This document shows positions 6,826 to 60,266 of a stretch of DNA of 64,000 nucleotides, piece by piece. The stretch spans positions 154,123 through 218,122 of the forward strand of contig CAWBBS010000011.1 of the NCBI GenBank assembly GCA_963787115.1, written 5' to 3'. The translations under genes and the position numbers were made by a program. How positions within the stretch are numbered: the stretch's first letter is position 1; each line of letters opens with the position of its first letter. The notes under the pieces are model-generated. The model ran no database searches and was not told the origin of the DNA. It saw only the letters and a list, made by a program, of their open reading frames with translations. Origin of the DNA: an uncultured Solirubrobacteraceae bacterium. Its GTDB lineage: Bacteria > Actinomycetota > Thermoleophilia > Solirubrobacterales > Solirubrobacteraceae.

Positions 6826-9342
6826 ATGGCCGCCACCGACTCAGCTCGACGCCTCACAAACGACGAGTCGGGCGTGCCTGCACATGGGCCCCGGCCCCGG
6901 CTCGCCGCCTTTCTGCTGGCCGCGCTCGCTGCAACATTCGCGTGCGCAGGGTCCGCCGCTGCGCAGGTGTCCCCTCGAATCGCGGCACCTCCGCTTGTGA
7001 AGATCGGCTCGGGCGGCGCTCCCGCACCGGCTCCTGAAGTCCAGGCCGCCGTCTCCTCCGGCGGTGCCGCTCTGACGTGGGGTGAAAACTATTACGGCGG
7101 CCTCGGCCAGTTCTACAGGGACACCCGGGAAGAATGGCCGCTCACCGTCGAAGGCCTCAGCAACGTCACCGCCGTCGCCGACGGCGGAAGCGTCACGCTC
7201 GCGGAGCTCGCCAACGGCGAAGTTGACTCGTGGGGCGCAAACCTCCACGGACAGCTCGGCAACAACGGCTTCAAAGCAAACTGGGAACTCGGCCTGAGTC
7301 ACGTGAACGTCCACATAGCCGGTGCCACGGCGGTCGCCGCCGCCAACGAGCACGCGCTGGCCATCGTCGGGAGCGGCCCCGGTTCGACCGTGGACGCGTG
7401 GGGCTCCAACGCATATGGAACGCTCGGCAACGGCAGAGCAGGATTCGCGGTCGCGCACACTCCGACCCCCGTGCCCGGTCTGACCGGAGTCAAGGCGATC
7501 GCCGCCGGGGGCGGCAGCGACTACGCGCTGATGATCAACGGCACGGTGCAGGCCTGGGGCGATAACCAGAGCGGACAGCTGAGCGCCGAACGCTGGCCCG
7601 TCGAATGCAACCGTGCGGGCAGGTGCAAGAGGGTCGAATACCTGTGCGGGACCGAAGTCGGCGCGGAACTCTGCAGCAAGGTGCCGCGGTATGTGGTGAC
7701 GGCGACCGGCAAGAAGCTCGAACACGTCAGGCGCATCGTCGCGGGAGCGGGCTCCGCCTACGCGCTCCTCGAAAACGGCGAGGTCATGTCCTGGGGGCAG
7801 GATCGCGCGGGACAGCTCGGTCAGAGTCCCGGCGTCGAACCGGGGGCGGGGAGCAACTTCCACGGCCCCGGCCTCGTGATGATGAGCGCAGCCAAGGGCG
7901 CTGAAGTCATGCGGGGAGTGACAGAACTCTCGGCCGGCCCGAACCACGTGCTCGCGCGGCTCGAAGACGGCGAAGTGCTCGGATGGGGCGACAACGCCAA
8001 AGGCGAGCTCGGCACCGCGGCCCACCCGGAAACCTGCCTGAAGGGCGCAGAAACCCCGTGCTTCAAGAACGCGCGCCCGGTCCAGGGCCTGGCGAAGGCG
8101 ATCGCCGAATCCAAGCACCACGCCGCCGAAGCGCTGGCGGCCGGCGGCCAGTACAGCCTCGCTCTGATCGAACACCGCGTCTACGCCTGGGGCAAAAACG
8201 GAGACGGCGAGCTCGGCGACGGCTCATGGCAGGGCCCCGAAAGCTGCAACACCGCCAGCGAACGCGCGAAGAACGCCGCCAAGGCAGCTCAGAAGGAAGC
8301 CGAAGCAGGGGAAGCGCAGCAGCGCGAACGCCAGCGGGAAGCCCGCGGCGAACAGGTCCTGAAGACCCCCCAGCAGATCGAAAACCAGCTCGCCGCCCAG
8401 CTTCTCGTGCTCCAGAAGGAACTTGAAAAAGCTGGAGCGTGCAGCCGTGTCCCGACCCTCATCCACATGCGCGGCGCCGAAACGGCGCCCGGCGAAAGCG
8501 CACCCGGAGCGCCACTGGAACACGTGAACACGATCGCCGCCGCCCCCACGCACGCGCTGGCGCTCCTCGAAGCGGGGGTTGCCCCGCCGGCGCCGGCGAT
8601 AGCGGTGCAGCAGGGCATGCTCGGTGCCCGCTCGGGCGAACCGGCGAAGCCCACGCTGACCTTCTCATGGGCACGGGATGTCGAACGGATGCTCTTCAGG
8701 ACGTTCGAACGCCCCGGGCTCGAAGAAGCGGAAGAAGAAGCCGGCGAAGGCGAAGGCGGTCGCTGTCTCGCAGCCGAAGAATGCGTCGAAGTGAAAGAAG
8801 GCGACGAAGGCGGATCAGGGCCACCGGTGAGCGTCGCTCTCCCGAGGGTCAAGCACCAGGGTCTTGAAGAAGGCGAACTCGTCAGCGAATTCCGCGAAGG
8901 GCAGATCCTGTTCGCCGCGGAGGGAAAATGGAGCGGCGCAGAACCACTCGACTTCTCCTACCAGTGGCAGCGCTGCTCGCTGCAGGGCGTGTGCGCGAAC
9001 GTGGGCCAGCCGACCACCAACGACACGTACGTGGTGGGCCCCGCAGACACGGGCTCCACGCTGCGGGTGAGCGTCACAGCCGCCAACGGCCTCGAACCCG
9101 CCCTGTCCGCGACCTCGGCGCCGACGCCGCTCGTCAAATCCAAGGAAGAAGGCCGGGTGTCCAAAGGCGACAGCATCAAATTCAAGGACCCCGCGCCCGG
9201 AGGCCTGATGGTCGATGAGATCGAAGAAGGCGGAGGCGCCCCCGTGTCGCTGCAGGAAGGGGTCGCATACGAATTCAAACTGTCGGTCGGCGAAAAACGC
9301 CTCACCACCGTCGTGACGCCAACGCAGGGACCGGCCCACTAG
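6826..9342 (+). CDS. Secreted RCC1/BLIP-II-like repeat protein with C-terminal Ig-like module
   Basis: Signal-like LAAFLLAALAATFACAGSAAA; repeated xWGxNxxGQLG units; C-terminal GKWSGAEPLDFSYQWQRC module. Confidence 0.85.
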   Translation: MAATDSARRLTNDESGVPAHGPRPRLAAFLLAALAATFACAGSAAAQVSPRIAAPPLVKIGSGGAPAPAPEVQAAVSSGGAALTWGENYYGGLGQFYRDTREEWPLTVEGLSNVTAVADGGSVTLAELANGEVDSWGANLHGQLGNNGFKANWELGLSHVNVHIAGATAVAAANEHALAIVGSGPGSTVDAWGSNAYGTLGNGRAGFAVAHTPTPVPGLTGVKAIAAGGGSDYALMINGTVQAWGDNQSGQLSAERWPVECNRAGRCKRVEYLCGTEVGAELCSKVPRYVVTATGKKLEHVRRIVAGAGSAYALLENGEVMSWGQDRAGQLGQSPGVEPGAGSNFHGPGLVMMSAAKGAEVMRGVTELSAGPNHVLARLEDGEVLGWGDNAKGELGTAAHPETCLKGAETPCFKNARPVQGLAKAIAESKHHAAEALAAGGQYSLALIEHRVYAWGKNGDGELGDGSWQGPESCNTASERAKNAAKAAQKEAEAGEAQQRERQREARGEQVLKTPQQIENQLAAQLLVLQKELEKAGACSRVPTLIHMRGAETAPGESAPGAPLEHVNTIAAAPTHALALLEAGVAPPAPAIAVQQGMLGARSGEPAKPTLTFSWARDVERMLFRTFERPGLEEAEEEAGEGEGGRCLAAEECVEVKEGDEGGSGPPVSVALPRVKHQGLEEGELVSEFREGQILFAAEGKWSGAEPLDFSYQWQRCSLQGVCANVGQPTTNDTYVVGPADTGSTLRVSVTAANGLEPALSATSAPTPLVKSKEEGRVSKGDSIKFKDPAPGGLMVDEIEEGGGAPVSLQEGVAYEFKLSVGEKRLTTVVTPTQGPAH

Positions 9343-10303: not shown

Positions 10304-10365
10304 GAGGTCGGCGTTCACCTACGGACGCGCCTGGGGGGATGGCGCCTCAATCTGGCTCTGGTGAA

Positions 10366-10455
10366 CGGAAGGGGGGGGATTCGAACCCCCGAGACGGGGG
10401 TTGCCCGCCTAACGGTTTTCAAGACCGCCGCATTCAACCGCTCTGCCACCCTTCC
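10366..10455 (-). tRNA. tRNA-Ser(TGA)
   Basis: GGAAGGG/CCCTTCC acceptor stem, anticodon loop CT-TGA-AA, long variable arm, GGTTCGAATCC T-arm; CCA not encoded. Confidence 0.96.
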
Positions 10456-10562
10456 GCGGTCCAACCATGCTACGGACTCGCCCGGCACGGCTCCTTCGAG
10501 AACGGCTCGCCTGGGGACCTGCGTTCGCGGCGACCGGCGCTCACGGCGCGCGTCCGCCCTGA

Positions 10563-13932: not shown

Positions 13933-14021
13933 GGAGAGGTGGCCGAGAGGCTGAAGGCACTCGCCTGCTAAGCGAGTATGGGGGTCAAACTCCATCGCGG
14001 GTTCGAATCCCGCCCTCTCCG
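13933..14021 (+). tRNA. tRNA-Ser(GCT)
   Basis: GGAGAGG/CCTCTCC acceptor stem, loop CT-GCT-AA, long variable arm, GGTTCGAATCC. Confidence 0.96.
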
Positions 14022-14091
14022 CTCAGAGTGCTCCGGACCACGCTCCTCCGCCCGGAGCGTGGTCCGGGCCGTGTGCAAAGGGCCGTGGCCG

Positions 14092-23850: not shown

Positions 23851-24690
23851 CTACAGCTCGAAGATCGTGCCCTCGGCCCCCACGAGAACGGGCGGCGTGT
23901 GGCCGGTGAAGCGGGCGGCCAGCTGATCGAGCTCGTCGTCCGTGCGGTCCGAGCGGTGGTGAAAGAGCACGACCGTCCCCGCGCCCGCGCGCGTCCCGAG
24001 CCCCACGCCGTAGTCGGCGACCGCGTGCCCGTACACCGCCATCTCCTCCTCGTCGGGCAGCAGCTGCGCATCGTGCAGCAGCAGGTCGGCGCCGGCGGCG
24101 AGCTCGAGGGCCGCAGGGTGGTACTCACCGAACCCGTCCTCGCCGGGGCCGAGGACCGTGGGGCAGTGATCCGGCATGTAACACAGCGTCGAGCGCCCAT
24201 CGCTGATGCGGTAGCCGAACGTGCGCCCGCCCTTGTGCGGCACCTCGCATGCGAGGACCGTGAAGCCCTGGAGCTCGTGCTCGCCCGGGGCGAGCGTGTC
24301 GAAGCGCCAGTCGCCCCGCAGCGCCGTCGGGCCGACGGGGAAGTAGGGGGGGCGCATGATCCCCGAGAGCACTTCGACCGCGTCTCTGCCGTCGGCCTGC
24401 TCGGGGAGCAGAAGGTGAACCGCCGCGGTGTCATCGTCGCCCCTCGGGAAGAACGGCAGCCCCGTGGAGTGGTCCCAGTGCAGGTGCGAGAGCAGGATCG
24501 TGCCCCGGAAGGGCGATCCGTTCAGCAGCTTGTGCACCTGCTGCAGGCCGATGCCGGCATCGAGGACCAGGCTCGGAGCGGCGGCGCCGTCATGCGCGAT
24601 GGCGACGCACGCGGTGTGCCCGCCGTAGCGAATGAACTCGAATCCGGGCGCGGGCGTGGAGCCGCGCACTCCGCAGAGATGGACCCGCAA
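23851..24690 (-). CDS. MBL-fold metallo-hydrolase (RNase Z/cyclic-nucleotide PDE-like subfamily)
   Basis: GVRGSTP, YGGHTACV, LDAGIG, SHLHWDH (HxHxDH), YMPDH, HDAQ, LFHH. Confidence 0.9.
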   Translation of the reverse strand: MRVHLCGVRGSTPAPGFEFIRYGGHTACVAIAHDGAAAPSLVLDAGIGLQQVHKLLNGSPFRGTILLSHLHWDHSTGLPFFPRGDDDTAAVHLLLPEQADGRDAVEVLSGIMRPPYFPVGPTALRGDWRFDTLAPGEHELQGFTVLACEVPHKGGRTFGYRISDGRSTLCYMPDHCPTVLGPGEDGFGEYHPAALELAAGADLLLHDAQLLPDEEEMAVYGHAVADYGVGLGTRAGAGTVVLFHHRSDRTDDELDQLAARFTGHTPPVLVGAEGTIFEL

Positions 24691-24915
24691 GGCTGCTCAG
24701 TCCCGGTCAGGCCTCGTGCGGCGGCGCGAGAGGGGCCGCGCACGAACGCGGCGATCGTGGTTTGCAGGCCCGTCGAGCTGAACCGTGTACGCGCGACCGG
24801 TGACCGCCACCGGTGGGGCCGCGGACCGCAGGCTCGATAGACCGTTCCGGCGCACGCGCGCATTATGTCATCAGAACGTGAACGCGGCACGAGCCCGTGT
24901 ACTTTGCGCGTCCGT

Positions 24916-26691
24916 TCAGCTCGGGTCCGGGATCGTCCAGACGGGAAGCTTCTCGGTGCGTCCGCGGATGTCCAGCTCGCCATACAGTTCGAGCTGCTGC
25001 GGCGGGTGCTCCAGCCGGTCGCGCGTGGACTGCGCCACGAAGAGCATGTGGCCGGTCCCCTTGGTCATGCCCTCCAGGCGCGAGGCCGTGTTGGTCGTGT
25101 CGCCGAGTGCCGTGTATTCGACGCGCCGCTCGGAGCCGATGTTCCCGGCCATCACCGGGCCGCTGTTCAGCCCCACACCCATGCGGAAGCGGTGCTCGTG
25201 CCCCTCCTGGCCGAGCCAGTCGTTGAAGCCGTCCAGCCGCGGCCCGATCATCTCGATCGCGGCGGTGAGCGCCCGATCGGCGTGGTCGGTCTGCTCGAGC
25301 GGCGCGCCGAACACGGCCATGATCCCGTCGCCCATGTAGGAGATCAGCGTGCCGCCGGCATCCTGGATCGCTTCGGTCATTTCGTTCAGGTAGGTGTTGA
25401 CGACGTCGATCACGCGCGAGGCCGGCTGCGTCTCGGAGAAGCTCGTGAACCCGCGCAGGTCGGAGAACAGCACCGTGCAGTCGCGTTCGACTGCGCCGAG
25501 GCGCAGGTTGTCGTCGGTTCGCGCGACCACCTGGGCGATCACGTCGGGAGGCACGAACCGCGCGAACAGGTCGTGCACCCGCTCGCGCTCGATCGCCTCG
25601 CTGAGGTAGACGACCGCGAGCGTGCCGAGCGAGGCAATCGCGAGCGCCAGCAGCGGATAGACCACGGAGACGATGCGCCCGTTGTTGAACGCGAACTGGG
25701 CCGCGACCGTGAAGATGATCGCGCCGGCGAGCGCGGCCAACAGCGAGCGAAGCGGCGGAAGCCGCAGGCTCGCGAGCGGGGCTATCGCTCCGATCGCGAT
25801 GATCAGCAGGACGTCGACCCAGGCCGGGACGCCGCGGAGCGGCACCCCCCGCTGCAGTGTCGAGACGGCGTTGGCCCAGAGTTCGGGCCCGGACATGACC
25901 AGGCCGTTGGTGGTAGCGGTCGAGTGCACGTCCTGCAGCACCGGCGCCGTCGCTCCGAGGATCACGGTCTTGCCACGGAAGGCGTTCGCCGGATAGTTCC
26001 CGGTCAGGACCTTCGAGTAGGAGATCGACCTGAAGGTTTCCGGCGGCCCCACGAAGTCGATCGGAAGGGTCCCGTCTTCGAACAGCGAGGCGTGCACCAG
26101 CTTCCCGGTCTCGACTTCGTTCGTCACGACCCCGAAGCTCTTGAGGTGGTGGTCCTGGAAGGGGAAGCGCCTGACGGTGCCGTCGCTGTCGACGGTGAGC
26201 CTCGCACTGGCGGGGCGCGCGCCGATTTCGGCGAGCAGCCCGTTGCCGCCGAGTATCTGTGTTTCCCCGTTGGTGCCGACCGAGGTCGTCGTCAGGACGG
26301 TGCGTCCGTGCGCGCGCCCGATCGCTTCGATCAGTTCGTTGTCTTCGGTTTCATTGGTCTGCTGGGTGAACTGAAGGTCGATGGCGATCACCCGTGCTCC
26401 GCCCTCGCGCAGGCGGTCGATGACCTTGGCGTCGTACTTGCGGGGGAAGGGGAACTCCGAGGCCAGTTTCCTTTCGTTCATTTCCTGCAGGGAGGCGTTG
26501 TCGATCGCCACGATGACGATGTTCGCGGGGGGCGTCTCGGGCCCGCGCACCGAGAAACGGGCATCGATGGTCTGCTCTTCACTGCGCCGGAGCAGGTTGG
26601 TCGCGTAGGCGACCACGCCGACACCGCATGCCACAAAGGCCACCACCAGGAGCAGCGCAGCCTTGCGGCGGCGCCAGGCTGCGCGGCCCAC
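24916..26691 (-). CDS. CHASE2-domain class III nucleotidyl cyclase
   Basis: N-terminal TM; CHASE2 (IVIVAID, FPRKYDAKVI, MSGPELWANA); three TMs; cyclase motifs LFSDLRGFT, GDGIMAVFG, GDTTNTASRLE. Confidence 0.93.
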   Translation of the reverse strand: MGRAAWRRRKAALLLVVAFVACGVGVVAYATNLLRRSEEQTIDARFSVRGPETPPANIVIVAIDNASLQEMNERKLASEFPFPRKYDAKVIDRLREGGARVIAIDLQFTQQTNETEDNELIEAIGRAHGRTVLTTTSVGTNGETQILGGNGLLAEIGARPASARLTVDSDGTVRRFPFQDHHLKSFGVVTNEVETGKLVHASLFEDGTLPIDFVGPPETFRSISYSKVLTGNYPANAFRGKTVILGATAPVLQDVHSTATTNGLVMSGPELWANAVSTLQRGVPLRGVPAWVDVLLIIAIGAIAPLASLRLPPLRSLLAALAGAIIFTVAAQFAFNNGRIVSVVYPLLALAIASLGTLAVVYLSEAIERERVHDLFARFVPPDVIAQVVARTDDNLRLGAVERDCTVLFSDLRGFTSFSETQPASRVIDVVNTYLNEMTEAIQDAGGTLISYMGDGIMAVFGAPLEQTDHADRALTAAIEMIGPRLDGFNDWLGQEGHEHRFRMGVGLNSGPVMAGNIGSERRVEYTALGDTTNTASRLEGMTKGTGHMLFVAQSTRDRLEHPPQQLELYGELDIRGRTEKLPVWTIPDPS

Positions 26692-26778
26692 CTAGCGTTC
26701 GCCCGCCGTGCTGAGGGCGAGGTGAAACCGGCGATTGCGGTTGCCTTGCGTCAGGCTTGATAGGTGCTCGCTCATAAA

Positions 26779-26807
26779 TTGACTTCTGATCAGCCCATGA
26801 TTATCGT
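26779..26807 (+). promoter_or_regulatory. Putative promoter in AT-rich divergent intergenic region
   Basis: TTGACT (26779-26784), 17 nt, TATCGT (26802-26807), upstream of the FG-GAP/IPT gene. Confidence 0.45.
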
Positions 26808-26929
26808 TTAGATTCGAGAGCGTCGCTAAAGGTCGCATGGGCGTGGCTCGCAGTCCGCGGGCATTATTTAGCCATATAGAGCTTCGGAGGAGTGAGACGC
26901 CCGGTACCCCGGGCTCTTTTTGTATAGGC

Positions 26930-29900
26930 ATGGATCGCTCGACAACTATCCCGAAGACGGACACCACGCAGCGCATGCCGCGTCTGCTGATCGCTGCGGC
27001 GGTGCTCTCGGTGCTGCTAGGCACCTGGCTCGCGGGCGTCATCGCGGGCGCCAGCCAGGGCGGCCGCACTCCGGCCGCGGCCTCGCATGCCGCGTCGCTG
27101 GAGTCACTCGGACCCGCCTCCGCCCTGCCGATCTCTCAGGCCGTCGGCCGCGCCGACCCCGCCTACCACGCCACCGCCTCGGCTGCAGGTGCGAGCTTCT
27201 CGACACCGGCCCAGGCAATGAGCGAGAACTTCTCGAGCGCCGGTGTGACGGTGCACGCCGGTGCCCTCGCGCTCGGACTCGACCTCACCGGAGTGGGCAC
27301 GAGCACGGCCCTCGCCCCCGTCGCGCAGACCGCGCCGACAGCGACAGGCAACCGGGTGCTCTATTCGCGCGGCGCCGTCAGCGAGTGGTATGTGAACGGT
27401 CCCGCCGGCCTGGAGCAGGGATTCACCGTCGCGAGCGCTCCGGCGGGCTCGGGTCCGCTGACGCTGGGGCTCACGATCTCGGGCAACGCGAGCGCGCACG
27501 CGGGCACCACACCGCAGAGCATCGACTTCAAGGGTCCCGCCGGCAAGCTTCTGCGCTACGGCGACCTCAGGGCCGTCGACGCGGCCGGGCACCCGCTCAG
27601 CGCTCGTCTGGCGATTCACGGGCGGACGCTGCAGATAGAGGTCAACACCAGCGGAGCGCGCTTCCCGGTGCGGATCGACCCGCTCGTCCAGCAGGGTGGC
27701 AGGCTCTCGGAAGGCAACGAAGGGCTGTTCGGGTTCAGTGTCTCCCTGTCCGCAGACGGCAACACGGCGCTCGTGGGAGCGCCCCGCACACCCCTGAACA
27801 GGTTCGCCGGCACCGCGTGGGTCTTCACGATGACCTACACGGGGTGGGCCGAGCAGGCCGAATTCGGCACCAGCGAACCCGGCGGTTCATTGTCACCGGA
27901 ATGCGCGGCCGCGCCTGAACACTGCAGCATCGGGACCAGCGTCTCGCTTTCGGCCGATGGCAACACCGCGCTGGTGGGGGCGCCCTCGCCGCGCAAGAAC
28001 GGCTATCACGGCCAGGTGTTCGTCTACACGCGCGAAGGGACCGTTTGGACCCGTACCGCCACCCTCCTCGCCGGCAGCGAACAGGCCGGCGGCGGTGGCT
28101 TCGGACAGGGCGTGGCGGTGTCGGCGGACGGCACGGAGGCGATCGTCGGGGCTCCCCAGGACCTCTCCAACCGCGGCTCCGTCTGGATCTTCCAGCGCAG
28201 CGGCTCCACCTGGTCCCACGACGGGGGCCTGCTGAACGGCGGGAAGGCCGAGGTCGGGCCCGGTCACCTCGGCTACAGCGTGGCCATCGACGGGAACACG
28301 GCGATCGCCGGGGCGCCCGATGACGGCAGCGCACAATCCGGAGCGGTATGGGACTTCACTCGAACCAGTTCAGGCTGGACGCTGCCCGGCAACAAGATCG
28401 TCGCCCCCGGAGCAGGCTCCGGTGCGCACTTCGGCTACAGCGTCGCGCTCGCGGGTGAAAGGGCGATCGTCGGCGCCCCCGGTGCCGCCGCGGGGGCCGG
28501 TGTGGCGTGGGGCTTCACCCAGGCCACCGCCGCCCTCGACGAACCCTTCGAAATCACGGGCTCAGGTGAGGTCGGCGCGGGAGCATTCGGATCGTCGGTC
28601 GCGCTCTCCGGTGACGGCCACACCGCGCTCATCGGCGCCCCTGGCGACAGCTCGGGCGCCGGCGCGGCCTGGCTGTTTGGGAGCTCGGGAGGCGCCTGGA
28701 CGACGCTCCAGCAACTCGGGAGCGGTGAAGCTGAACAGCTCAAATTCGGTACCAGCGTCGCACTGTCAGGCGACGGGACGAGTGCCCTGGTCGGAGGCGC
28801 GCCGGAAGAATCCCGCATGGGCGCGGTGTGGTCCTTCGGCCACGCGGTGGCTCCCGTCGTGGGCGCCGTGCACCCGGAATCGGGTCCGGTCGCCGGTGGC
28901 ACGACCGTCGTGATCGAAGGCAGCGGCTTCAAAGCCGGTGCGACCGTCACGATCGGCACGGCAGCGACCTCGGTGAAGGTGATCTCCACCAGCAAGATTC
29001 TCGCCACGACGCAGGCGAACCCGGCAGGCTCCGATGAGGTCATCGTCAGCGACTCGGGAGGGACCTCGACGGGTGGTCCGCTGTTCACCTTCACCCCGCC
29101 CAAGCCGCCCGCGCCGACCGTCACCTCCGTGGAACCGTCGTCCGGGCCCGCAGCCGGCGGCAGCGAAGTGACGATCACGGGCACGGGCTTCGTCTCCGGC
29201 GCGGCCGTGGTGATCGGCAGCCCCGCCGAATCGGTGAACGTCATCTCCTCGACTGAAATCCGCGCCGTCACAGCGGCCACGCCCGCAGGCTCGGACGAAG
29301 TCGTGGTGAGCGACGCCAACGGAACCTCCGAAAACGGCCCGTCCTTCACCTACACCAGTCCTCCCCCCGCCCAGGAAAAGACCACCACCACTTCCACCAC
29401 CACGACGACGACCACCACGACGACGACTCCGACGCCTCACATCGCGGCCTCCGGCGTCCTGGGCTCCAGCGAACAGGAACTCCCCGCTCCGGTGCTCGCG
29501 ACCAGCGGCAACATCAAGCGGGTGACGGGCACCATCTACATCAAGCTCCCGGGCAGCAGCGGCTTCACCGTCCTCAGCCCGCAGGCGCATGTCCCGTTCG
29601 GGACGGTCATCGACGCCACCAGCGGTCACGTCCAGGTCATCACCGCGGGACCCAGCGGGCCGGAGACCATCACCTACTACGGCGGCGTCTTCAAGCTGAC
29701 CCAGAGCAGGAAGGGCTCGGTCATCGCGACCCTCACCGGCGGCAGCCGCGTCGGCTGCCCGGTCGCGAAAAGGAACACCCGCCACCTCGACAGCGACGGC
29801 GACTTCGACAACGACTCATACGCCCGGGCTGCGCGCTCCACCAAACGCGTGGTGCGCAAACTGTGGTCCGAAGGCCACGGGCACTACACGACGAAGGGCA

Positions 29901-30064
29901 GCTACGCCACGGGAGCCGTCCTCGGGACCCGCTGGCTCACCGAGGATCTCTGCGACGGCACCCTGATCCACGTCTCGACCGACATGGTCCTGGTTACGAA
30001 CCTGCGCACCCACCGCAAGGTGATCGTCAGGGCCGGGCACAGCATCTTCGTCAAAGCCCCCTGA
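26930..30064 (+). CDS. Large secreted protein: N-terminal beta domain, FG-GAP repeats, two IPT/TIG domains, Thr-rich linker, FecR-like C-terminal domain
   Basis: Signal-like LLIAAAVLSVLLG; repeated FGxSVxLSxDGxTALVGAP; two PxVxxVxPxSGPxAGGxxVxIxGxGF units; C-terminal GTRWLTEDLCDGT..V..V..RAG. Confidence 0.85.
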   Translation: MDRSTTIPKTDTTQRMPRLLIAAAVLSVLLGTWLAGVIAGASQGGRTPAAASHAASLESLGPASALPISQAVGRADPAYHATASAAGASFSTPAQAMSENFSSAGVTVHAGALALGLDLTGVGTSTALAPVAQTAPTATGNRVLYSRGAVSEWYVNGPAGLEQGFTVASAPAGSGPLTLGLTISGNASAHAGTTPQSIDFKGPAGKLLRYGDLRAVDAAGHPLSARLAIHGRTLQIEVNTSGARFPVRIDPLVQQGGRLSEGNEGLFGFSVSLSADGNTALVGAPRTPLNRFAGTAWVFTMTYTGWAEQAEFGTSEPGGSLSPECAAAPEHCSIGTSVSLSADGNTALVGAPSPRKNGYHGQVFVYTREGTVWTRTATLLAGSEQAGGGGFGQGVAVSADGTEAIVGAPQDLSNRGSVWIFQRSGSTWSHDGGLLNGGKAEVGPGHLGYSVAIDGNTAIAGAPDDGSAQSGAVWDFTRTSSGWTLPGNKIVAPGAGSGAHFGYSVALAGERAIVGAPGAAAGAGVAWGFTQATAALDEPFEITGSGEVGAGAFGSSVALSGDGHTALIGAPGDSSGAGAAWLFGSSGGAWTTLQQLGSGEAEQLKFGTSVALSGDGTSALVGGAPEESRMGAVWSFGHAVAPVVGAVHPESGPVAGGTTVVIEGSGFKAGATVTIGTAATSVKVISTSKILATTQANPAGSDEVIVSDSGGTSTGGPLFTFTPPKPPAPTVTSVEPSSGPAAGGSEVTITGTGFVSGAAVVIGSPAESVNVISSTEIRAVTAATPAGSDEVVVSDANGTSENGPSFTYTSPPPAQEKTTTTSTTTTTTTTTTTPTPHIAASGVLGSSEQELPAPVLATSGNIKRVTGTIYIKLPGSSGFTVLSPQAHVPFGTVIDATSGHVQVITAGPSGPETITYYGGVFKLTQSRKGSVIATLTGGSRVGCPVAKRNTRHLDSDGDFDNDSYARAARSTKRVVRKLWSEGHGHYTTKGSYATGAVLGTRWLTEDLCDGTLIHVSTDMVLVTNLRTHRKVIVRAGHSIFVKAP
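29386..29433 (+). repeat. ACC/ACG low-complexity repeat encoding a poly-Thr linker
   Basis: Translates as TTTTSTTTTTTTTTTP between the second IPT domain and the C-terminal domain. Confidence 0.8.
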
Positions 30065-30076
30065 GGGCCGTCCACC

Positions 30077-33000
30077 TCAGACCCGCACGACCGTCCGGCG
30101 CCCGGCGAGGTCGGCTGAACCTCCGCCGGCGGCGGTGAGCCAGGAGGGCGCCTGTTCCAGCGCTGCAACCGCGGCACGCCGCCCGGCCTCGCGGGCGTGG
30201 TCGATCTGGTGGAACTCGAGCAGTCCGACACCCGACACGCGCACCGCGATCGTCAGGTCGGCGAGGCGCTGGGCGGCATCATCGGTGTTCGCGCTGCTCA
30301 GCAGGGCGATCCGCCCGAGCGTCTCCGGCAGCGAGGGCAGGCGCCGGCGGGGCTCGCCCCCGTCGCGGCCCTCGCGGGGACCTGTCCGCTCCTCGCCGCC
30401 CTTGATGTCGATCGCGAGCACCGGCCCCTCGCCGGCCTGGCTCATCGGCTCGAGCGGCAGGTTGTCCAGCAGTGATCCATCGATCAGCAGTTCATCGTCG
30501 TTGCGGATCGGCGGCGCGATCAGGGGAAGGGACATGCTCGCTCCCACCGCCTCGAACAGCGGGCCGCTGCGGCTGATCACCAGGCCGCTGCGGCGCAGGT
30601 TCACGCTCGCGCAGTAGAAGGGCCGGGAGAGATCCTCCACGTAGGACTCCCCGAAGACCCGTTCGAGCATCGCCCGCGCCTTGTTGCCCCTGATCAGGCC
30701 TGCGCGCGGCAGCGTGTAGTCGTTGATCGGATTGCGCCTGACCCACTCCTCATAGCAGCAGGCATCGATCGCGGGGACGTCCCGGCCCATCGCAAGCTGG
30801 CCGCCGATGAAGGCGCCCATCGAGACGCCGCCCACGCGGTCGACGGGCATGCCGGCTTCCACCAGGACCTCAAGGACGCCGAGGTGCGCGAATGCCCTTC
30901 CGCCTCCCCCGCTCAGCACGACGCCGAGTGCGCGGCCGGACAGGCGCCTGGCCATACGCTCGACGTCCGCGCGCAGCCCGGGACCGGCGGAGATGGCATG
31001 CACGCCCGCAGGAGCGAGCTCGGTCAGCCAGCCCGCGAGCTCGCCCGAGCCCTCACGGATGCCGTAGCCGACGAGGTCCGCACCGCGCAGGCCGCTCGCC
31101 CACGAGCGCGGGCTGTCCTGCGCGCCGACGGGGGCAGGTCCCGCGACAACCGCCAGAACGCGGTCGGCGCGCGAGACACAGAACTCATCCCACGCGCTCG
31201 GCTCCACGCCCTGCCCGCAGACCATGATGACCTGGTCGTGCTCGAGCTCGCAGCTCTCAACGAGCGGTCCGTAACGGGCGGCCGCCTCGGCGCGGGAGGC
31301 GGGCGCCAGCGCGCCGTCCCCGTCCTCTCGCGGATAGAGGACCGCGACCCGGCCGTGGTGGCACAGCGCCCGGCTGAGCTCATCGGCGAGCTCGAGCAGC
31401 GGGACCCCGGGCCCCGCAGCCCGCATGGCGATCGTGACGGGCCTTGCCCGCTTGACAGCCGGTATCGCGCGGCTCGCCTGGAGCTGTGTGCTGAGAACCC
31501 TGGTCAGGCTGAGCGCGAGCTCGGGCTCGGAGCGCAGCAGGGCGTCGAAGTGCGGCCTGTCGATTCGCAGCAGCTCGGTGTCGCGCAGGGCCCTGACGGC
31601 GGCGCTGCGCGCAGAGCCGCTGAGCAGCGCGAGCTCGCCGAGCACCGCACCGCGCGTGAGCGTGTTGATCGTCTGCTCGCTCTGCTCGCCGTTGTCTGAG
31701 AGGACCTCCCGCACGACCTCAAGGTGCCCGACCCGCACCAGGTACACCGCGTCGGCCGGGTCGCCCTCGCGGAACAGCCACTCGCCCCTCGGGAGCGTGA
31801 CGTCGGCGGTGATGTCGGCCACGCGCTCGAGCATCGCGGGCGACAGGTCCGCGAACACCGGGGCGTTGCGCAGGAACTCGGCCACGGGCTGGGGGGCGGC
31901 GGCCGCATGGACGCCGTCGGACTCCGCGAGGCTCGGCAGCTCGGCCGCGGTCGCCGGCCCGGTGGAGAGGCCGTCCGCGAGGCCGCCGGCGAGTCTCTCC
32001 CCGGCGGGGCGCTCGTCCTCCTCGGCCGGCTTGGCGACCACGAGCCCCAGGCAGGCGATGGCCCCGAACAGGAAGCAGCCGCACGCATACAGCCAGCCGT
32101 TCTGGAACGTGTGCAGTGCTTTGGTGAGCGCGGTGCTCTCGAGCGCCGCCAGCAGCGGAGCGGGCAGGCCGCGGGGGAGGGACGGAGCCGATCCGTTGCC
32201 GACGATCGCGATCAGGACCGCGACCCCTAGGGCCGCGCCGATCTGGCGGGCGACGGCGTTCAGGGATGTCGCCAGGGCGAAGCGCGGCCCGGGCACCGAT
32301 TCGACGGCGGCGCCGCTGAGGGTCGGGAAGGAGAGCCCTGCGCCTATGCCGAGGATGACCATGCCGGGGAGCCACTGCCCGAGGAAGTCGGGCCTCACGC
32401 CTAGCTGCGTTGCGAAGAACGCCGCGCCGGCAGCCCAGATCAGCGCGCCCGGGACCGCGACCGCCCGGTGGCCGAGCCTGGAGACCGCCCGGCTTGCGGG
32501 CGCCGCCACGGCGATCGCCACGAGCGGGCCGGGGGTCAGCGACAGGCCGGCCTTCAGGATCGAGTACTGCCACACGCTCGTCAGGAACAGGACGTTGCAG
32601 AGCGTGTAGCCGAAGAAGCCGCTCGCCATCACGACGGTGACGCCGTTGGAGAGTGCGAACGAGCGTATGCGCAGCAGCGTGAGGTCCACGACCGGCGTGC
32701 GCTGGCGGGCCGTGCGCAGCACGAAGTAGACCCCGAGCGCGAGCGTCAGGGCGAAGGCGCCGATGATGCGGGGGCTCGTCCAGCCCCATTCCTGGCCCTT
32801 GACGATCGCGAGCACGAGCGTCGCGATCGCCAGGGCGAGCACGACGCCGCCGACGAGGTCCGGCACGCGCCTGCGGCCGGGTGCACGGCTCTCGATGAGG
32901 ACGCGGCTCGCCAGCACGTAGGCGGTGATCCCGATGGGGATGTTCACCAGGAACACCAGCCGCCAGTTGGAGGCGGTGATCAGGATGCCTCCGAGAGCGG

Positions 33001-33541
33001 GCCCGGTGCCGGCGGCGAGCGCAGCGATGGCCGCCCACAGCGAGACGGCGTGGGTGCGCCTCGTGCCCGGGTAGGCCTCCAGGACGATCGCCAGCGAGCT
33101 CGGCACGAGGGCTGCGGCCCCGGCCGCCTGCAGCACGCGCGCTGCCACGAGCAGGCCGAGGGTGGGCGCGACCGCGCATGCTGCGGACGCGAGCGTGAAG
33201 AGGATCAGCGCGGCGCAGAAGATGCGCCTGCGGCCCAGCAGGTCGGCGAGCTGGCCTCCGCCCACCAGGAACGCGGCGAACACGATGTTGTAGGCGTTCA
33301 GCACCCACGAGACGCTCTCCAGCGAGGACCCCGCGAAGTCCTGGTGGATGTTGGGGATCGCGATGTTGACGATCGTCGCGTCGACGAACGCCATGAACGT
33401 GCCGAGGGCCGCGACGGCCAGCACCCTTCCCGGCGAGGAGATCCGTCGTGTGCGCGGCTCCGGCGCGATCGACGCAGGTTCCGCGAGCACGCTCACCGAT
33501 CGCCCCCGCGACGGCTCGCATCCCGCACCCATCCCTGACAT
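30077..33541 (-). CDS. DHA2 MFS transporter - cyclic-nucleotide-binding domain - patatin-like phospholipase fusion (start uncertain)
   Basis: 14-TM MFS (DATIVNIAIP, WVLNAYNI); CNBD (LFREGDPAD, GELALL...RSAAVRA); patatin (LSGGGGRAFAH, GVSMG, DGSL). Confidence 0.92.
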   Translation of the reverse strand: MSGMGAGCEPSRGRSVSVLAEPASIAPEPRTRRISSPGRVLAVAALGTFMAFVDATIVNIAIPNIHQDFAGSSLESVSWVLNAYNIVFAAFLVGGGQLADLLGRRRIFCAALILFTLASAACAVAPTLGLLVAARVLQAAGAAALVPSSLAIVLEAYPGTRRTHAVSLWAAIAALAAGTGPALGGILITASNWRLVFLVNIPIGITAYVLASRVLIESRAPGRRRVPDLVGGVVLALAIATLVLAIVKGQEWGWTSPRIIGAFALTLALGVYFVLRTARQRTPVVDLTLLRIRSFALSNGVTVVMASGFFGYTLCNVLFLTSVWQYSILKAGLSLTPGPLVAIAVAAPASRAVSRLGHRAVAVPGALIWAAGAAFFATQLGVRPDFLGQWLPGMVILGIGAGLSFPTLSGAAVESVPGPRFALATSLNAVARQIGAALGVAVLIAIVGNGSAPSLPRGLPAPLLAALESTALTKALHTFQNGWLYACGCFLFGAIACLGLVVAKPAEEDERPAGERLAGGLADGLSTGPATAAELPSLAESDGVHAAAAPQPVAEFLRNAPVFADLSPAMLERVADITADVTLPRGEWLFREGDPADAVYLVRVGHLEVVREVLSDNGEQSEQTINTLTRGAVLGELALLSGSARSAAVRALRDTELLRIDRPHFDALLRSEPELALSLTRVLSTQLQASRAIPAVKRARPVTIAMRAAGPGVPLLELADELSRALCHHGRVAVLYPREDGDGALAPASRAEAAARYGPLVESCELEHDQVIMVCGQGVEPSAWDEFCVSRADRVLAVVAGPAPVGAQDSPRSWASGLRGADLVGYGIREGSGELAGWLTELAPAGVHAISAGPGLRADVERMARRLSGRALGVVLSGGGGRAFAHLGVLEVLVEAGMPVDRVGGVSMGAFIGGQLAMGRDVPAIDACCYEEWVRRNPINDYTLPRAGLIRGNKARAMLERVFGESYVEDLSRPFYCASVNLRRSGLVISRSGPLFEAVGASMSLPLIAPPIRNDDELLIDGSLLDNLPLEPMSQAGEGPVLAIDIKGGEERTGPREGRDGGEPRRRLPSLPETLGRIALLSSANTDDAAQRLADLTIAVRVSGVGLLEFHQIDHAREAGRRAAVAALEQAPSWLTAAGGGSADLAGRRTVVRV

Positions 33542-53077: not shown

Positions 53078-53161
53078 GCGGGCGTGGTGAAATGGTAGAC
53101 ACGTCAGATTTAGGTTCTGGTGGCGAAAGCCGTGGGGGTTCAAGTCCCTTCGCCCGCACCA
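53078..53161 (+). tRNA. tRNA-Leu(TAG)
   Basis: GCGGGCG/CGCCCGC acceptor, loop TT-TAG-GT, variable arm, GGTTCAAGTCC, encoded CCA; directly upstream of tig. Confidence 0.95.
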
Positions 53162-55348: not shown

Positions 55349-55558
55349 CCGCGGCATCCGCGATTTCACCGCCGGGGCGGCCTGTGATGCCGTCCCGGTA
55401 ATTTGCTTTTTCAGTCGAGTTCATTGTGGTTTATACGGCACGGTTCGCCGTATGATTCGCTGTGTTCAAGGGGACTGGCTGACCGCGGTTCTTGTCCCTG
55501 CCGCGTATAGGGAGTTATTATTCCCCATTGTGCCCCTGTGTCCGGGGGAGGAGTGCGC

Positions 55559-56815
55559 ATGAGCAAGTCCGGCAATTCGAAAAATACCCTCTACTGCTCG
55601 TTCTGCGGCAAGTCCCAGCACGAAGTCCGTAAGCTCATCGCCGGCCCGACCGTCTTCATCTGCGACGAGTGCGTCGAGCTTTGCATGGATATCATCCGTG
55701 AGGAGCACAAGACGCACCTGGTGAAGTCGCGCGACGGCGTGCCGACCCCGAGGGAGATCTGCAAGGTGCTGGACGACTACGTCATCGGCCAGGACCACGC
55801 CAAGCGGGTCCTGTCGGTCGCGGTGCACAACCACTACAAGCGCCTGGCGCACGGCCAGAAAAACAACGACGTCGAGATCGCGAAATCCAACATCCTGCTG
55901 GTCGGCCCGACCGGCTCGGGCAAGACCCTGCTGGCCCAGACCCTGGCGCGCATCCTGGACGTGCCGTTCACCATGGCCGACGCCACCACGCTGACCGAAG
56001 CCGGCTACGTGGGCGAGGATGTCGAAAACATCATCCTCAAGCTGCTGCAGTCGGCCGACTACAACGTCGAGCGGGCGCAGCGCGGCATCGTCTACATCGA
56101 CGAGGTCGATAAGATTTCACCGCAAGTCGGACAACCCGTCGATCACCCGCGACGTGTCGCGGCGAAGGCGTGCAGCAGGCGCTGCTGAAGATCATGGAAG
56201 GCACGGTTGCCTCGGTGCCGCCGCAGGGCGGGCGCAAGCATCCGCAGCAGGAATTCCTGCAGGTCGACACCACCAACATCCTGTTCATCTGCGGCGGCGC
56301 GTTTCCGGGCCTGGAGCGCATCATCGGCGCCCGCGGCAAGGGATCGGGAATCGGCTACGGCGCCGAGGTGCGCTCGCCCGGACGAACGCCGGATGGGCGC
56401 GATCCTGCGCGAGGTCGAGCCGGAGGATCTGCTGAAGTTCGGCCTGATCCCCGAGTTCATCGGCCGTCTGCCGGTGGTGGCGACGTTGGAAGACCTCGAC
56501 GAAGGCGCGCTGATGGAGATCCTCACCAAGCCGAAGAACGCGCTGGTCAAGCAGTACGGCCGGCTGTTCGAGATGGAGGGCGTCAAGCTGTCCTTCACCG
56601 ACGACGCGCTGAAGTCGGTCGCGACCCGGGCGATCGCCCGCAAGACCGGCGCGCGCGGCCTGCGGTCGATCATGGAACAGATCTCTGCTGTCCACCATGT
56701 TCGAACTGCCGGGCCTGGACGGGGTCGAGGAGGTCGTTATCAACCGGGAGGTCGCGGAATCCGCGCCAATCCGCTGTATCTGTACGGCAAGGAGCGGGCG
56801 GAAAACACCGCCTGA
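55559..56815 (+). CDS. clpX: Clp protease ATP-binding subunit (several apparent frameshifts)
   Basis: CSFCGK zinc finger, [34 protein letters not shown]. Confidence 0.93.
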
Positions 56816-56994
56816 TTAGTGCGCGCGACCCGGAGTCCGGCTCGCGGTGGCGTGATCGTGGATTTCAAGGGCTTGCGGCGAACCGTTCGGCTGCCATATC
56901 TGGCGTCGAACGGGTCTTGACAGACCCGAGTGAAAGCGTTTTCCGTGCCGCTGCTCGGGCGGAAGGCGCTGACTGTCCTTTAGGAGGTCAATAC

Positions 56995-59447
56995 ATGACG
57001 GAACAGAGATCGGCCCGCTCCCGAGCGGCCTGCCGGCAAAGCCAGTCCGCGCCACCGCAGCGACGTGATGGCGGTGCTGCCGCTGCGCGATATCGTGGTG
57101 TTCCCGCACATGATCGTCCCGCTGTTCGTCGGCCGCGAAAAATCGGTTCGCGCGCTCGAAGCGGTGATGAAGGAGGACAAGCAGATCCTGCTGGTCGCCC
57201 AGAAAAATGCCTCCCAGGACGACCCGTCGGTCGAGGACATCTATCCGGATCGGCACCGTCTCCACGATCCTGCAGCTTCTGAAGCTGCCGGACGGCACCG
57301 TAAAGGTGCTGGTCGAAGGCGGCCGCCGCGCGAAGATCACCGGCTTCAAGGAAACCGAAGCCTATTTCGAGGCGCAGACCGAAGCGATGCCCGACGTCAG
57401 TCGGCGAGAAGAAGGACCTCGAGGCGCTCGGCCGCACCGTCGTCTCGCAGTTCGAGCAGTACATCAAGCTGAACAAGAAGATCGCGCCCGAGGTGCTGGT
57501 TTCGCTGAACCAGATCGAGGAGCCGTCGAAGCTGGCCGACACGGTCGCCAGCCATCTGAACCTGAAGATCCCCGAAAAGCAGGACCTGCTGGAGATCGCC
57601 AAGATCAGCGAGCGGCTGGAACGCGTGTTCGGCCACATGGAGTCGGAAATCGGCGTCCTGCAGGTGGAAAAGCGCATCCGCAACCGCGTCAAGCGGCAGA
57701 TGGAGAAGACCCAGCGCGAGTACTACCTGAACGAGCAGCTCAAGGCGATCCAGAAGGAACTGGGCGAGGGCGAGGACGGCAAGGACGAGAACGCCGAACT
57801 CGAAGCCAAAATCAAGAAGACCCGATTCACCAAGGAAGCCCGCGAGAAGGCCGATGGCGGAGCTGAAGAAGCTGCGCACCATGAGCCCCATGAGCGCGGA
57901 AGCCACGGTGGTGCGCAACTACCTCGACTGGATGCTGTCGATTCCCTGGAAGAAGCGCAGCAAGATCAACAACGACGTCGTCGCGGCCGAGAAGGTGCTC
58001 GAACCGATCACTACGGCCTGGAGAAGGTCAAGGAACGCATCATCGAGTACCTGGCCGTTCAGGCGCGCAGCCCGAAGGTGCGCGGGCCGATCCTGTGCCT
58101 GGTCGGCCCGCCGGGTGTCGGCAAGACCTCGCTGGGCAAGTCGATCGCCAAGGCGACGGGGCGCAATTTCGTCCGCATGTCGCTGGGCGGCGTGCGGGAC
58201 GAGGCCGAGGTGCGTGGCCACCGGCGGACCTATATCGGCTCGATGCCCGGCAAGGTCATCCAGGGCATGAAGAAGGCCAAGACCTCCAACCCGCTGTTCC
58301 TGCTGGACGAAGTGGACAAGCTGGGGCCGACTGGCGCGGCGATCCGTCGTCCGCGCTGCTGGAGGTGCTGGACCCCGAGCAGAACTCGACGTTCGCCGAC
58401 CACTACCTGGAGGTCGACTACGACCTGTCCGACGTGATGTTCGTCACCACGGCCAACAGCCTGCGCATGCCGCAGCCGCTGCTGGACCGCATGGAGATCA
58501 TCCGCATCCCCGGCTACACCGAGGATGAGAAGGTCGAGATCGCCAAGCGCCACCTGATCAACAAGCAGGGCGAGGCGCACGGCCTGAAGAAGGAAGAGTG
58601 GAGCATCAGCGAAGATGCCCTGCGCGACCTGATCCGGTACTACTCGCGCGAGGCCGGCGTTCGCAACCTGGAGCGCGAAATCGCCAACCTGGCCCGCAAA
58701 GTCGGTCAAGGAGATCGTGACCAAAAAGACGCCAAAGGTCGCGATCACCCGCAAGAACCTGGAAAAGTTCGCCGGGGTCAAGAAGTTCCGCTTCGGCGAG
58801 ACGGAAGCCGAGGACATGGTCGGCGTCGTCACCGGTCTGGCCTGGACCGAAGTGGGTGGCGAGATCCTGACCATCGAGTCGGTGCTGTTGCCCGGCAAGG
58901 GCAACGTCAAGCAGACCGGCAAGCTGGGTGACGTGATGCAGGAAAGCGTCTCCGCGGCCCTGAGCTACGTCCGCAGCCGCTCGCTGCAGGTTCGGGATCA
59001 AGCCGACGCTGTTCGAGAAGCGCGACATCCACGTCCACGTCCCGGAAGGGGCGACACCCAAGGACGGTCCCTCGGCTGGCGTCGCCATGGCCACATCCAT
59101 CGTGTCGATCCTGACCGGCATCCCGGTGCGGCGCGATGTGGCGATGACCGGCGAGATCACCCTGCGCGGCCGTATCCTGCCGATCGGCGGCCTGAAGGAA
59201 AAGCTGCTGGCGGCGCTGCGGGCGGGCATCACGACGGTGTTCATCCCGAAGGAGAACGAAAAGGACCTGGCCGAAATCCCGGACAACGTGAAAAAGCACC
59301 TGAAGCTCGATTCCCGTAGCCGATGTGGACGAGGTCATTGCCCAGGCGCTGGCGCGTCGTCCGGTCGCCATCGAGTGGGAGGAACCACCCGAGACACCCG
59401 TGCCGGTGGCAACGCCGCAGCCGGCACAAGCGTCGCTGCCACACTAA
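56995..59447 (+). CDS. lon: Lon protease (several apparent frameshifts)
   Basis: [51 protein letters not shown]; AGGAGG RBS. Confidence 0.93.
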
Positions 59448-59981: not shown

Positions 59982-60056
59982 GGGCGGTTAGCTCAGCGGT
60001 AGAGCGTCTCGTTTACACCGAGAGGGCCGGCGGTTCGAATCCGTCACCGCCCACCA
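59982..60056 (+). tRNA. tRNA-Val(TAC)
   Basis: GGGCGGT acceptor, loop TT-TAC-AC, GGTTCGAATCC, encoded CCA. Confidence 0.95.

Positions 60057-60189: not shown

Positions 60190-60266
<77 letters not shown>

Follow-up and report, generated by a model that had tools for sequence, protein, structure and literature searches.

A candidate cyclic-nucleotide signaling locus of the Solirubrobacterales with a conserved core and an exchangeable reader gene

Introduction

Gene clusters that pair a CHASE2 receptor with a FecR-domain protein have been described in several bacteria. In the Campylobacterota, a CHASE2 adenylate cyclase, a cyclic AMP (cAMP) phosphodiesterase (PDE), an outer-membrane protein with a FecR domain and a TPR protein are encoded together and are proposed to form one pathway on the basis of clustering alone (PMC9239204). 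In Sinorhizobium meliloti, the gene cyaD1 neighbors smc02177, which encodes the FecR-domain protein SMc02177 (PMC5498481), and the BiofilmReg operon of Burkholderia combines a periplasmic protein bearing LysM and FecR domains with a CHASE2 histidine kinase (PMC5192318). Here we analyze a stretch of 64,000 nucleotides, hereafter the window, from an uncultured Solirubrobacteraceae bacterium (assembly GCA_963787115.1, contig CAWBBS010000011.1, positions 154,123 to 218,122). A locus of four genes at positions 23851–33541 of the window encodes a membrane CHASE2 class III nucleotidyl cyclase, a metallo-beta-lactamase (MBL)-fold hydrolase, a large surface or secreted protein, and a fusion of a major facilitator superfamily (MFS) transporter, a cyclic-nucleotide-binding domain (CNBD) and a patatin-like lipase. 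On balance, we lean towards the view that the locus is one version of a chromosomal cyclic-nucleotide signaling locus that recurs in the Solirubrobacterales and combines a conserved core with an exchangeable reader.

The locus shares with the Campylobacterota cluster a CHASE2 class III cyclase, a gene for a candidate PDE and an extracytoplasmic protein with a FecR or, in the present case, a tentatively FecR-like domain. It differs from that cluster in several respects: the host is a monoderm actinobacterium; the partner protein is large, is built of FG-GAP and IPT modules and ends in a domain that scores below Pfam FecR; CNBD readers are encoded inside the cluster; and the cyclase is devoid of the adenine-selecting Lys. 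The candidate PDE is of the MBL fold, and no PDE family is named in the text consulted on the Campylobacterota cluster (PMC9239204). The full four-gene complement of that cluster was not recovered, as the cyclase and the candidate PDE are present, the FecR match is weak, and a Pfam scan of the four genes and ten open reading frames (ORFs) of the flanking regions revealed no TPR protein.

Comparison with the CyaD1/CyaD2/CyaK system of S. meliloti and its Clr regulon reveals further common traits: a CHASE2 cyclase that senses an extracellular (protein) signal by way of envelope accessories, a FecR-domain protein encoded nearby, and a CNBD-type protein as the reader (PMC5498481, PMC13001267). There, the signal travels by way of NsrA, an outer-membrane protein, and is read by a transcription factor of the Crp family (PMC5498481, PMC13001267), whereas the candidate readers of the present locus type are the membrane-bound MFS-lipase fusion and a small CNBD protein without a helix-turn-helix, and an outer membrane is not expected. 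The Burkholderia BiofilmReg proteins display the same principle of a variable module plus a constant docking domain, in that a secreted binding module and a FecR-type domain are paired with a CHASE2 sensor; their output, however, consists of a histidine kinase and a response regulator, and their partner protein carries a true Pfam FecR domain (PMC5192318).

These precedents indicate that the locus is a Gram-positive variant of a described cluster type rather than a new system (PMC9239204, PMC5498481, PMC5192318). An earlier note on this DNA, made from the sequence alone, knew of no description of the complete arrangement in monoderm Thermoleophilia. That claim of novelty has to be narrowed, given that the clustering of CHASE2, PDE and FecR genes had already been reported, and applies to the features of the variant: the monoderm host, a partner domain outside Pfam FecR that is mounted on swappable surface modules, a PDE candidate of the MBL fold, CNBD readers inside the cluster, including an NTE-type fusion, and a non-canonical specificity residue in the cyclase.

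Results

Organization of the locus and its conservation in the order

The GC content of the window is ~70%, so that long spurious ORFs are common; genes were picked by ranking the ORFs on third-position GC, which gave one clear gene per stretch. The four ORFs of the locus have third-position GC values of 0.85–0.92, a strong bias. On the minus strand, the cyclase gene (24916–26691; 591 amino acids (aa), GTG start) lies upstream of the MBL gene (23851–24690; 279 aa, TTG start). The two are separated by a gap of 225 bp (24691–24915), a position that is occupied in most relatives by a gene for a CNBD protein of ~340 aa. The surface-protein gene (plus strand; longest ORF 26837–30064, 1075 aa) is divergent from the cyclase gene, and the fusion gene (minus strand; 30077–33541, 1154 aa) converges on it, with the stop codons 12 bp apart. 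Coordinates, third-position GC and Pfam domains bear out the four genes as the earlier note had read them, apart from the FecR-like C-terminus, including the co-orientation of the MBL gene with the cyclase gene, the divergent FG-GAP/IPT protein and the convergent MFS-CNBD-patatin fusion. The host was also assigned correctly to the Thermoleophilia: the relatives of the cyclase all come from metagenome-assembled genomes (MAGs) of Solirubrobacteraceae or Solirubrobacterales, an order of the class Thermoleophilia in the phylum Actinomycetota.

The gene-neighborhood survey that the earlier note had proposed was carried out on 80 loci, taken from one genome per species, that carry cyclase orthologues of 62–82% identity and include as much as 10 kb of sequence to either side. 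Each gene or domain of the window, as well as the small CNBD protein of the relatives, served as a tblastn query. The counts refer to the 68 of these 80 loci that have full flanks, and presence or absence was scored within 10 kb. The sample covers a single order and contains many long-read MAG assemblies that are prone to error and in which gene calls are fragmented (e.g., L089).

The C-terminal domain of the surface protein, hereafter the partner domain, is encoded divergently upstream of the cyclase in 66 of the 68 loci, whatever the N-terminal modules; in some loci the FG-GAP/IPT part is swapped for lectin/fn3 or lactonase-propeller modules. An MBL orthologue is found downstream of the cyclase in 62 loci, always on the same strand and in some cases at a distance of 33–144 bp. 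The small CNBD gene stands directly ahead of the MBL gene in 45 loci and never occurs without it. The MFS-CNBD-patatin fusion adjoins the cluster in 18 loci, and in 15 the partner, the MBL hydrolase and the fusion are all present together with the cyclase. A local profile search detected at least one CNBD gene within 10 kb in 57 loci; these genes code for the small protein or the fusion, or belong to a third type located just past the surface-protein gene. The same search found zero CNBD genes in three unrelated loci and in the rest of the 64-kb window, the fusion gene being the only CNBD gene found in the window.

The arrangement is far beyond chance and recurs in many species of the order. 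Cyclase, partner and MBL hydrolase constitute a conserved core, with an interchangeable CNBD reader. The expectation of the earlier note that the four genes co-occur in other genomes is therefore upheld for the partner and the MBL hydrolase and only in part for the fusion; the low frequency of the latter, and the fact that a different, small CNBD protein is the commonest, speak for a conserved core with interchangeable readers instead of a fixed four-gene unit. Cyclases and CNBD proteins are numerous in the Actinomycetota, and functionally unrelated genes of signaling type could have come to lie side by side by accident. This explanation is very improbable, as the partner and the MBL gene retain their place and orientation in 66 and 62 of the 68 loci even though the cyclases share only 62–70% identity and the flanks differ, and we take pure chance to be excluded by the survey.

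A more serious alternative concerns the fusion. Only the sensor pair of CHASE2 cyclase and surface protein, perhaps together with the MBL hydrolase, might be functional, the fusion being a general NTE-like housekeeping protein that reads the global pool of cyclic nucleoside monophosphates (cNMPs) or the product of another cyclase, with an adjacency that reflects inherited gene order. The rarity of the fusion next to the cluster, the origin of every locus from a single order, and the predominance of a different CNBD protein all fit this explanation, as does the convergent orientation of the fusion and surface-protein genes, which means that in the window the fusion gene shares an operon with none of the other cluster genes. 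However, the 18 fusion-positive loci are scattered across the whole cyclase tree and not confined to a single clade, and the adjacency is kept in three gene orders. In L061 and L062, the fusion gene is placed between the partner gene and the cyclase gene, 63–83 bp upstream of the latter and on the same strand, and in L014 (10930–16221) a CNBD-patatin gene without the MFS part is directly followed by a full MFS-CNBD-patatin gene, both downstream of the cyclase and on the same strand. In addition, L089, which was reached via the partner domain and not via the cyclase, contains CHASE2, partner and CNBD-patatin genes together, and elsewhere the sampled DNA has few genes with a CNBD. We regard a housekeeping role of the fusion, detached from the cluster, as possible but doubtful.

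The CHASE2 cyclase

The cyclase displays a CHASE2 domain (PF05226; 135 bits, E 4e-39) at aa 26–303 (25783–26616, minus strand) and a Guanylate_cyc domain (PF00211; 84.6 bits, E 8e-24). As read from the translation, one hydrophobic helix precedes the CHASE2 domain and about three follow it. With a helix on its N-terminal side, a three-helix membrane segment behind it and an output domain further downstream, the domain has the layout of a CHASE2 sensor protein. Orthologues with 62–92% identity are found throughout the Solirubrobacterales.

The catalytic domain encompasses aa 404–580 (24952–25482, minus strand) in an alignment to Cya2 (2W01/6FHT) and OaPAC. The two metal-binding aspartates (D411 and D455) and the Asn and Arg of the transition state (N534 and R538) align with those of Cya2 and OaPAC and are invariant in 74 orthologues. 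With these residues and the PF00211 match, the protein classifies as a class III nucleotidyl cyclase, and it is probably active. The position that selects the purine through Lys or Glu is occupied by Ser451, and across the 74 orthologues by Ala (47), Ser (25), Thr (1) or Cys (1). Thr527, at the second of the specificity positions, is invariant and class IIIb-like. The pair Ser451/Thr527 corresponds neither to the canonical adenylate cyclase combination (Lys with Asp or Thr) nor, with Ser or Ala and Thr in the family, to that of guanylate cyclases (Glu with Cys, Ser or Gly). Given this replacement of Lys/Glu by Ser/Ala, the product cannot be inferred from the sequence, and the single nucleotide that the earlier note assigned to writer, eraser and reader cannot be named.

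The surface protein and its C-terminal domain

The surface protein starts with a hydrophobic signal or anchor, identified in the translation, and continues with FG-GAP repeats (FG-GAP_2, 106 bits over 4 stretches), two IPT/TIG domains (TIG, 93 bits), a Thr-rich linker and a conserved C-terminal domain. As a link between the second IPT/TIG domain and the C-terminal one, the protein has a run of ~17 Thr/Ser residues (29380–29440, aa ~848–866), which could form an extended, possibly glycosylated, stalk.

The C-terminal domain (29450–30061, plus strand) comprises ~190 aa, is predicted to be all-beta and, on the strength of its conservation, is proposed as a module that docks onto CHASE2. Neither the C-terminal 204 aa nor the N-terminal 244 aa of the protein match any Pfam family even at E ≤ 10, and a profile of the domain family retrieved no match among the PDB sequences at E ≤ 10. 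The AlphaFold (AF2) model of the domain, with a mean predicted local distance difference test (pLDDT) value of 86.6, consists of two beta-rich lobes. A Foldseek search of the PDB returned the periplasmic domains of FecR-type anti-sigma proteins as best matches, with weak E values of 0.014–0.1 and template modeling (TM) scores of 0.33–0.39; the top three were BDI_1681 structures (4M0H/4M0N) and PupR (6OVK) ranked tenth, with a Foldseek probability of 1.0. At the sequence level, Pfam FecR (PF04773) was touched by one of 32 family members (E 0.057), and an hhalign comparison with Escherichia coli FecR aligned a "GT-aromatic" strand motif at a non-significant probability of 0.25%. The FecR-like C-terminus proposed in the earlier note is thus retained as a plausible FecR-like fold of the model, and not as membership of PF04773 by sequence.

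The domain belongs to an unannotated family with 6366 representative clusters at 50% identity. It is C-terminal in the 150 family matches listed, in proteins that range from 145 to more than 2000 aa and whose N-terminal parts are varied extracellular modules (TIG, FG-GAP, lactonase/beta-propeller, Ig-like and PKD). In the family alignment, C168 is invariant, C103 is present in at least 90% of the sequences, and a stretch G-T-R-W-L-T-E-D-L-C is conserved. Relatives of the partner domain are also encoded near other CHASE2 proteins: in L085 a pair of CHASE2 genes is the neighbor, and in L090 a CHASE2-Ser/Thr kinase is encoded at a distance of ~4 kb; the latter suggests that the domain may serve CHASE2 receptors with outputs other than a cyclase.

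Two further gene arrangements were observed for this domain. In L090 (1–2041 and 6001–6528) and L086 (6321–8906), partner-domain paralogues are divergent next to a Wzy_C (O-antigen ligase-like) gene, and in L025 two genes that end in the partner domain (1167–1733 and 6920–7465) lie upstream of a single cyclase gene.

The MBL-fold hydrolase

The hydrolase matches Lactamase_B_2 (PF12706) with 49 bits (E 6.8e-13). Its motif SHLHWDH fits the [T/S]HxHxDH signature that defines the atypical class-II PDEs (PMC9293780), and residues H68, H70, D72, H73, H151, H174, D206 and H243 are invariant in 27 orthologues. The best Foldseek match of the AF2 model (pLDDT 88.5) is YhfI from Bacillus subtilis (6KNS; E 4e-13, TM scores of 0.67/0.76); next in rank are RNase Z, PhnP, Apyc1 (an anti-Pycsar phosphodiesterase of cNMPs) and yeast PDE1. 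YhfI has been grouped by Thomson et al. with the cAMP PDEs Rv1339 and CpdA as atypical class-II PDEs (PMC9293780). The hydrolase has in common with Rv1339 (Mycobacterium tuberculosis), CpdA (Corynebacterium glutamicum) and YhfI the MBL fold, PF12706, the [T/S]HxHxDH motif and a length of about 250–280 aa (PMC9293780), and thus shows the structural and motif hallmarks of an atypical class-II cNMP phosphodiesterase. It differs from them in being too dissimilar in sequence for phmmer to reach YhfI, and its activity is putative. The enzyme probably represents a separate subfamily beside Rv1339, CpdA and YhfI.

The protein might, alternatively, act as an RNase Z/PhnP-like phosphodiesterase or another hydrolase on an unrelated substrate, which would leave the cluster without a dedicated eraser. 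Its best sequence matches are to RNase Z, the fold search places RNase Z and PhnP shortly behind YhfI, and the NCBIfam model of cNMP phosphodiesterases is missed by a wide margin. Against such a role, the closest structure is YhfI, whose group includes the cAMP PDEs Rv1339 and CpdA (PMC9293780), and a cursory look revealed no tRNA-binding exosite insertion of the kind expected of RNase Z. It is the genomic context that speaks most strongly for a cNMP substrate: in 91% of the loci, the MBL gene comes after the cyclase on the same strand, and the small CNBD gene usually abuts it (45/68) and is never present without it. We therefore consider an unrelated substrate unlikely. The eraser function postulated in the earlier note is accordingly kept as a candidate function, favored by the YhfI-like model and the linkage to the cyclase and disfavored by a score far below the NCBIfam equivalog cut-off. 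The names given to the orthologues in the source records ("ribonuclease BN" and "phosphoribosyl 1,2-cyclic phosphodiesterase") are automatic and contradictory and were not used as evidence.

The MFS-CNBD-patatin fusion and the small CNBD protein

The fusion combines MFS_1 (147 bits), cNMP_binding (PF00027; 73 bits; aa 582–671, 31529–31798, minus strand) and Patatin (PF01734; 96 bits; aa 874–1032, 30446–30922, minus strand) with a weak match to NTE_Ploop. The transporter part belongs to the DHA2/EmrB subfamily (TIGR00711, 256 bits against an NCBIfam cut-off of 230). The phosphate-binding cassette of the CNBD, GELALLSGSARSAAVRA (GELAL..RSA), keeps the Glu and the Arg, and the lipase domain contains the Gly-rich loop SGGGGRA, the nucleophile motif GVSMG (GxSxG) and the Asp of the DGS motif (DG[A/S]). 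The protein has, in consequence, the complete set of features of an NTE-type MFS-CNBD-patatin fusion, and the weak P-loop match and the domain order place it with the NTE/PNPLA6-type esterases.

The mycobacterial proteins Rv3728 and Rv3239c, which we take to have the same MFS-CNBD-NTE-like esterase architecture, were reportedly described as such fusions by McCue et al. in Genome Res in 2000. The likeness is in domain order, with an MFS transporter followed by a CNBD and an NTE-like patatin esterase, and we know of no reported linkage of the mycobacterial genes to a CHASE2 cyclase locus. Both proteins appear simply as MFS pumps in a further source (PMC6300501).

The small CNBD protein of the relatives has 340–376 aa, with the CNBD at its C-terminus and a region of ~230 aa at its N-terminus that has no Pfam match, and is 73–90% identical between species. 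Examples are found in L003 (11856–12875) and L002 (13383–14513). The gene is present neither in the window nor in the closest relatives, L001 and L004–L006; the gaps between cyclase and MBL gene in L004 and L005 (250 and 358 bp) are likewise free of it. In the window, the corresponding spacer has no remnant of the gene (best tblastn E 0.42), and no terminator-like or promoter-like site on its minus strand.

The combination of a cyclase with a CNBD-lipase protein also evokes Pycsar-type anti-phage defense, in which a pyrimidine cNMP cyclase is coupled to a CNBD-bearing membrane or lipase effector that kills the infected cell. The PADLOC PycC models match the cyclase domain (86 bits) and the Pycsar effector models match the CNBD, the base-specifying residues of the cyclase are non-canonical, and patatin domains are a known type of abortive-infection effector. 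The PADLOC scores, however, equal those of the generic Pfam class III and CNBD models, which reduces the matches to homology at the domain level. Moreover, the cyclase has CHASE2 as an extracytoplasmic sensor, the locus is maintained throughout the order at 62–92% identity and sits among metabolic genes rather than in a variable island, and a resident phosphodiesterase would defeat a system of this kind. A defense function is hardly credible, and we rejected membership of the Pycsar systems in view of the domain-level matches, the sensor, the order-wide conservation and the housekeeping flanks.

The divergent control region and the surrounding sequence

The region between the cyclase and surface-protein genes (26692–26929, plus strand) is AT-richer than the genome and contains a promoter-like sequence, TTGACT-17-TATCGT, at 26779–26807. 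A hairpin, GCCCGG-TACC-CCGGGC, follows at 26899–26914 and precedes a T-run. L004–L006 keep the boxes of the promoter and an ATG at 26930, as well as the hairpin, in which base changes are compensatory. Judging from this conservation, the surface protein more likely starts at ATG 26930 than at 26837, and the region suggests a structured 5' leader ahead of its gene. The leader hairpin region matches no Rfam family, and an Rfam scan of the region and of the whole window revealed tRNAs only.

The genes flanking the locus are ordinary metabolic ones, with Pfam matches to cupin, acyl-CoA synthetase, MFS, PfkB kinase, enoyl-CoA hydratase and M20 peptidase. Five tRNA genes are located in the window: Ser-TGA (10365–10456), Ser-GCT (13933–14022), Leu-TAG (53078–53161), Val-TAC (59982–60056) and Asp-GTC (60190–60266). 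In the segment 53000–64000, the GC content drops from ~0.70 to 0.62–0.645 past the tRNA-Leu gene (53078–53161). This segment codes for trigger factor, ClpP, ClpX, Lon and subunits of NADH dehydrogenase. The clpX gene is split into two overlapping ORFs in different frames (55538–56188 and 56170–57282), and the matches to trigger factor and Lon are partial; the split gene and the partial matches suggest frameshift errors, which are typical of long-read MAG assemblies, or a mis-join.

Discussion

The cluster probably serves to perceive an extracellular cue and to turn it into a signal in the form of a cyclic nucleotide. In the model that we propose, the surface protein would be held outside the cell by its N-terminal signal or anchor, where its variable FG-GAP/IPT modules would engage an external ligand or surface and its C-terminal beta-domain, with a FecR-like fold, would contact the CHASE2 domain of the divergently encoded cyclase. 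CHASE2 would then signal through the three-helix membrane segment to a dimeric catalytic domain that forms a 3',5'-cyclic nucleotide, as anticipated from the domain architecture and the intact catalytic residues. The downstream MBL enzyme, of the YhfI/Rv1339 type, would hydrolyze the nucleotide and reset the signal. In the genome studied here, the CNBD of the fusion would read the nucleotide and elicit NTE-type (lyso)phospholipase activity and/or DHA2-type transport, with remodeling of membrane lipids or export as the outcome; in most relatives, the small CNBD protein would read it as well or instead.

What is directly observed comprises the genes present, their domains and catalytic motifs, and the conservation of their linkage, and several considerations weigh against assembling them into one signaling locus. 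Each interaction and each activity in the circuit is an inference, a hypothesis derived from the comparative genomics of uncultured soil bacteria. All loci come from one order, so that part of the co-occurrence is inherited synteny. In many of them, unrelated genes that span 1–8 kb intervene between the cyclase and the CNBD-MBL pair, and co-transcription is therefore not general. The MFS-CNBD-patatin gene is missing from 50 of the 68 neighborhoods. The FecR assignment is weak, as evidenced by the lack of a Pfam match, the Foldseek values (E 0.014, TM 0.33–0.39) and the non-significant hhalign result, and three of the six sampled partner-domain paralogues have no CHASE2 gene nearby. Finally, the MBL protein scores 26.9 bits with the NCBIfam equivalog for cNMP phosphodiesterases (NF041851), whose cut-off is 400, over aa 33–79 only, and a phmmer search of the PDB links it to the C-terminal regions of RNase Z alone and not to YhfI. 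The circuit from sensor through writer and eraser to reader that the earlier note envisaged is supported in its core of cyclase, partner and MBL hydrolase; it needs revision in that the reader is interchangeable, the FecR assignment weak and the nucleotide without a name. With these points taken into account, a recurrent locus with a conserved core and an exchangeable reader is still the interpretation that we find somewhat probable.

A bolder scheme can be conceived, although we consider it a long shot. Since Ala or Ser has taken the place of the purine-selecting Lys/Glu throughout the order, the cyclase family may make a non-canonical cyclic nucleotide, e.g., a pyrimidine cNMP, which would act as a housekeeping messenger for extracellular sensing. 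The YhfI/Apyc1-like MBL enzyme would be the phosphodiesterase dedicated to this messenger, and both CNBD proteins, the small one and the MFS-NTE fusion, would be its receptors. Sensing would rely on the unannotated family of 6366 clusters, whose domain would dock surface modules, in exchangeable fashion, onto CHASE2 receptors that act through a cyclase or a kinase.

The locus bears on the question of what CHASE2 domains respond to and by which route. The combination of a constant C-terminal domain with outer modules that vary between species indicates a modular co-receptor arrangement, and the locus offers a concrete protein pair, the CHASE2 ectodomain and the ~190-aa domain. For cNMP signaling in actinobacteria, the cluster nominates a subfamily of MBL-fold phosphodiesterases and two types of receptor. 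Moreover, the enigmatic MFS-CNBD-NTE fusions of bacteria, which occur in mycobacteria as well, are here linked in the genome to a defined cyclase, and this link could help to assign a function to these proteins.

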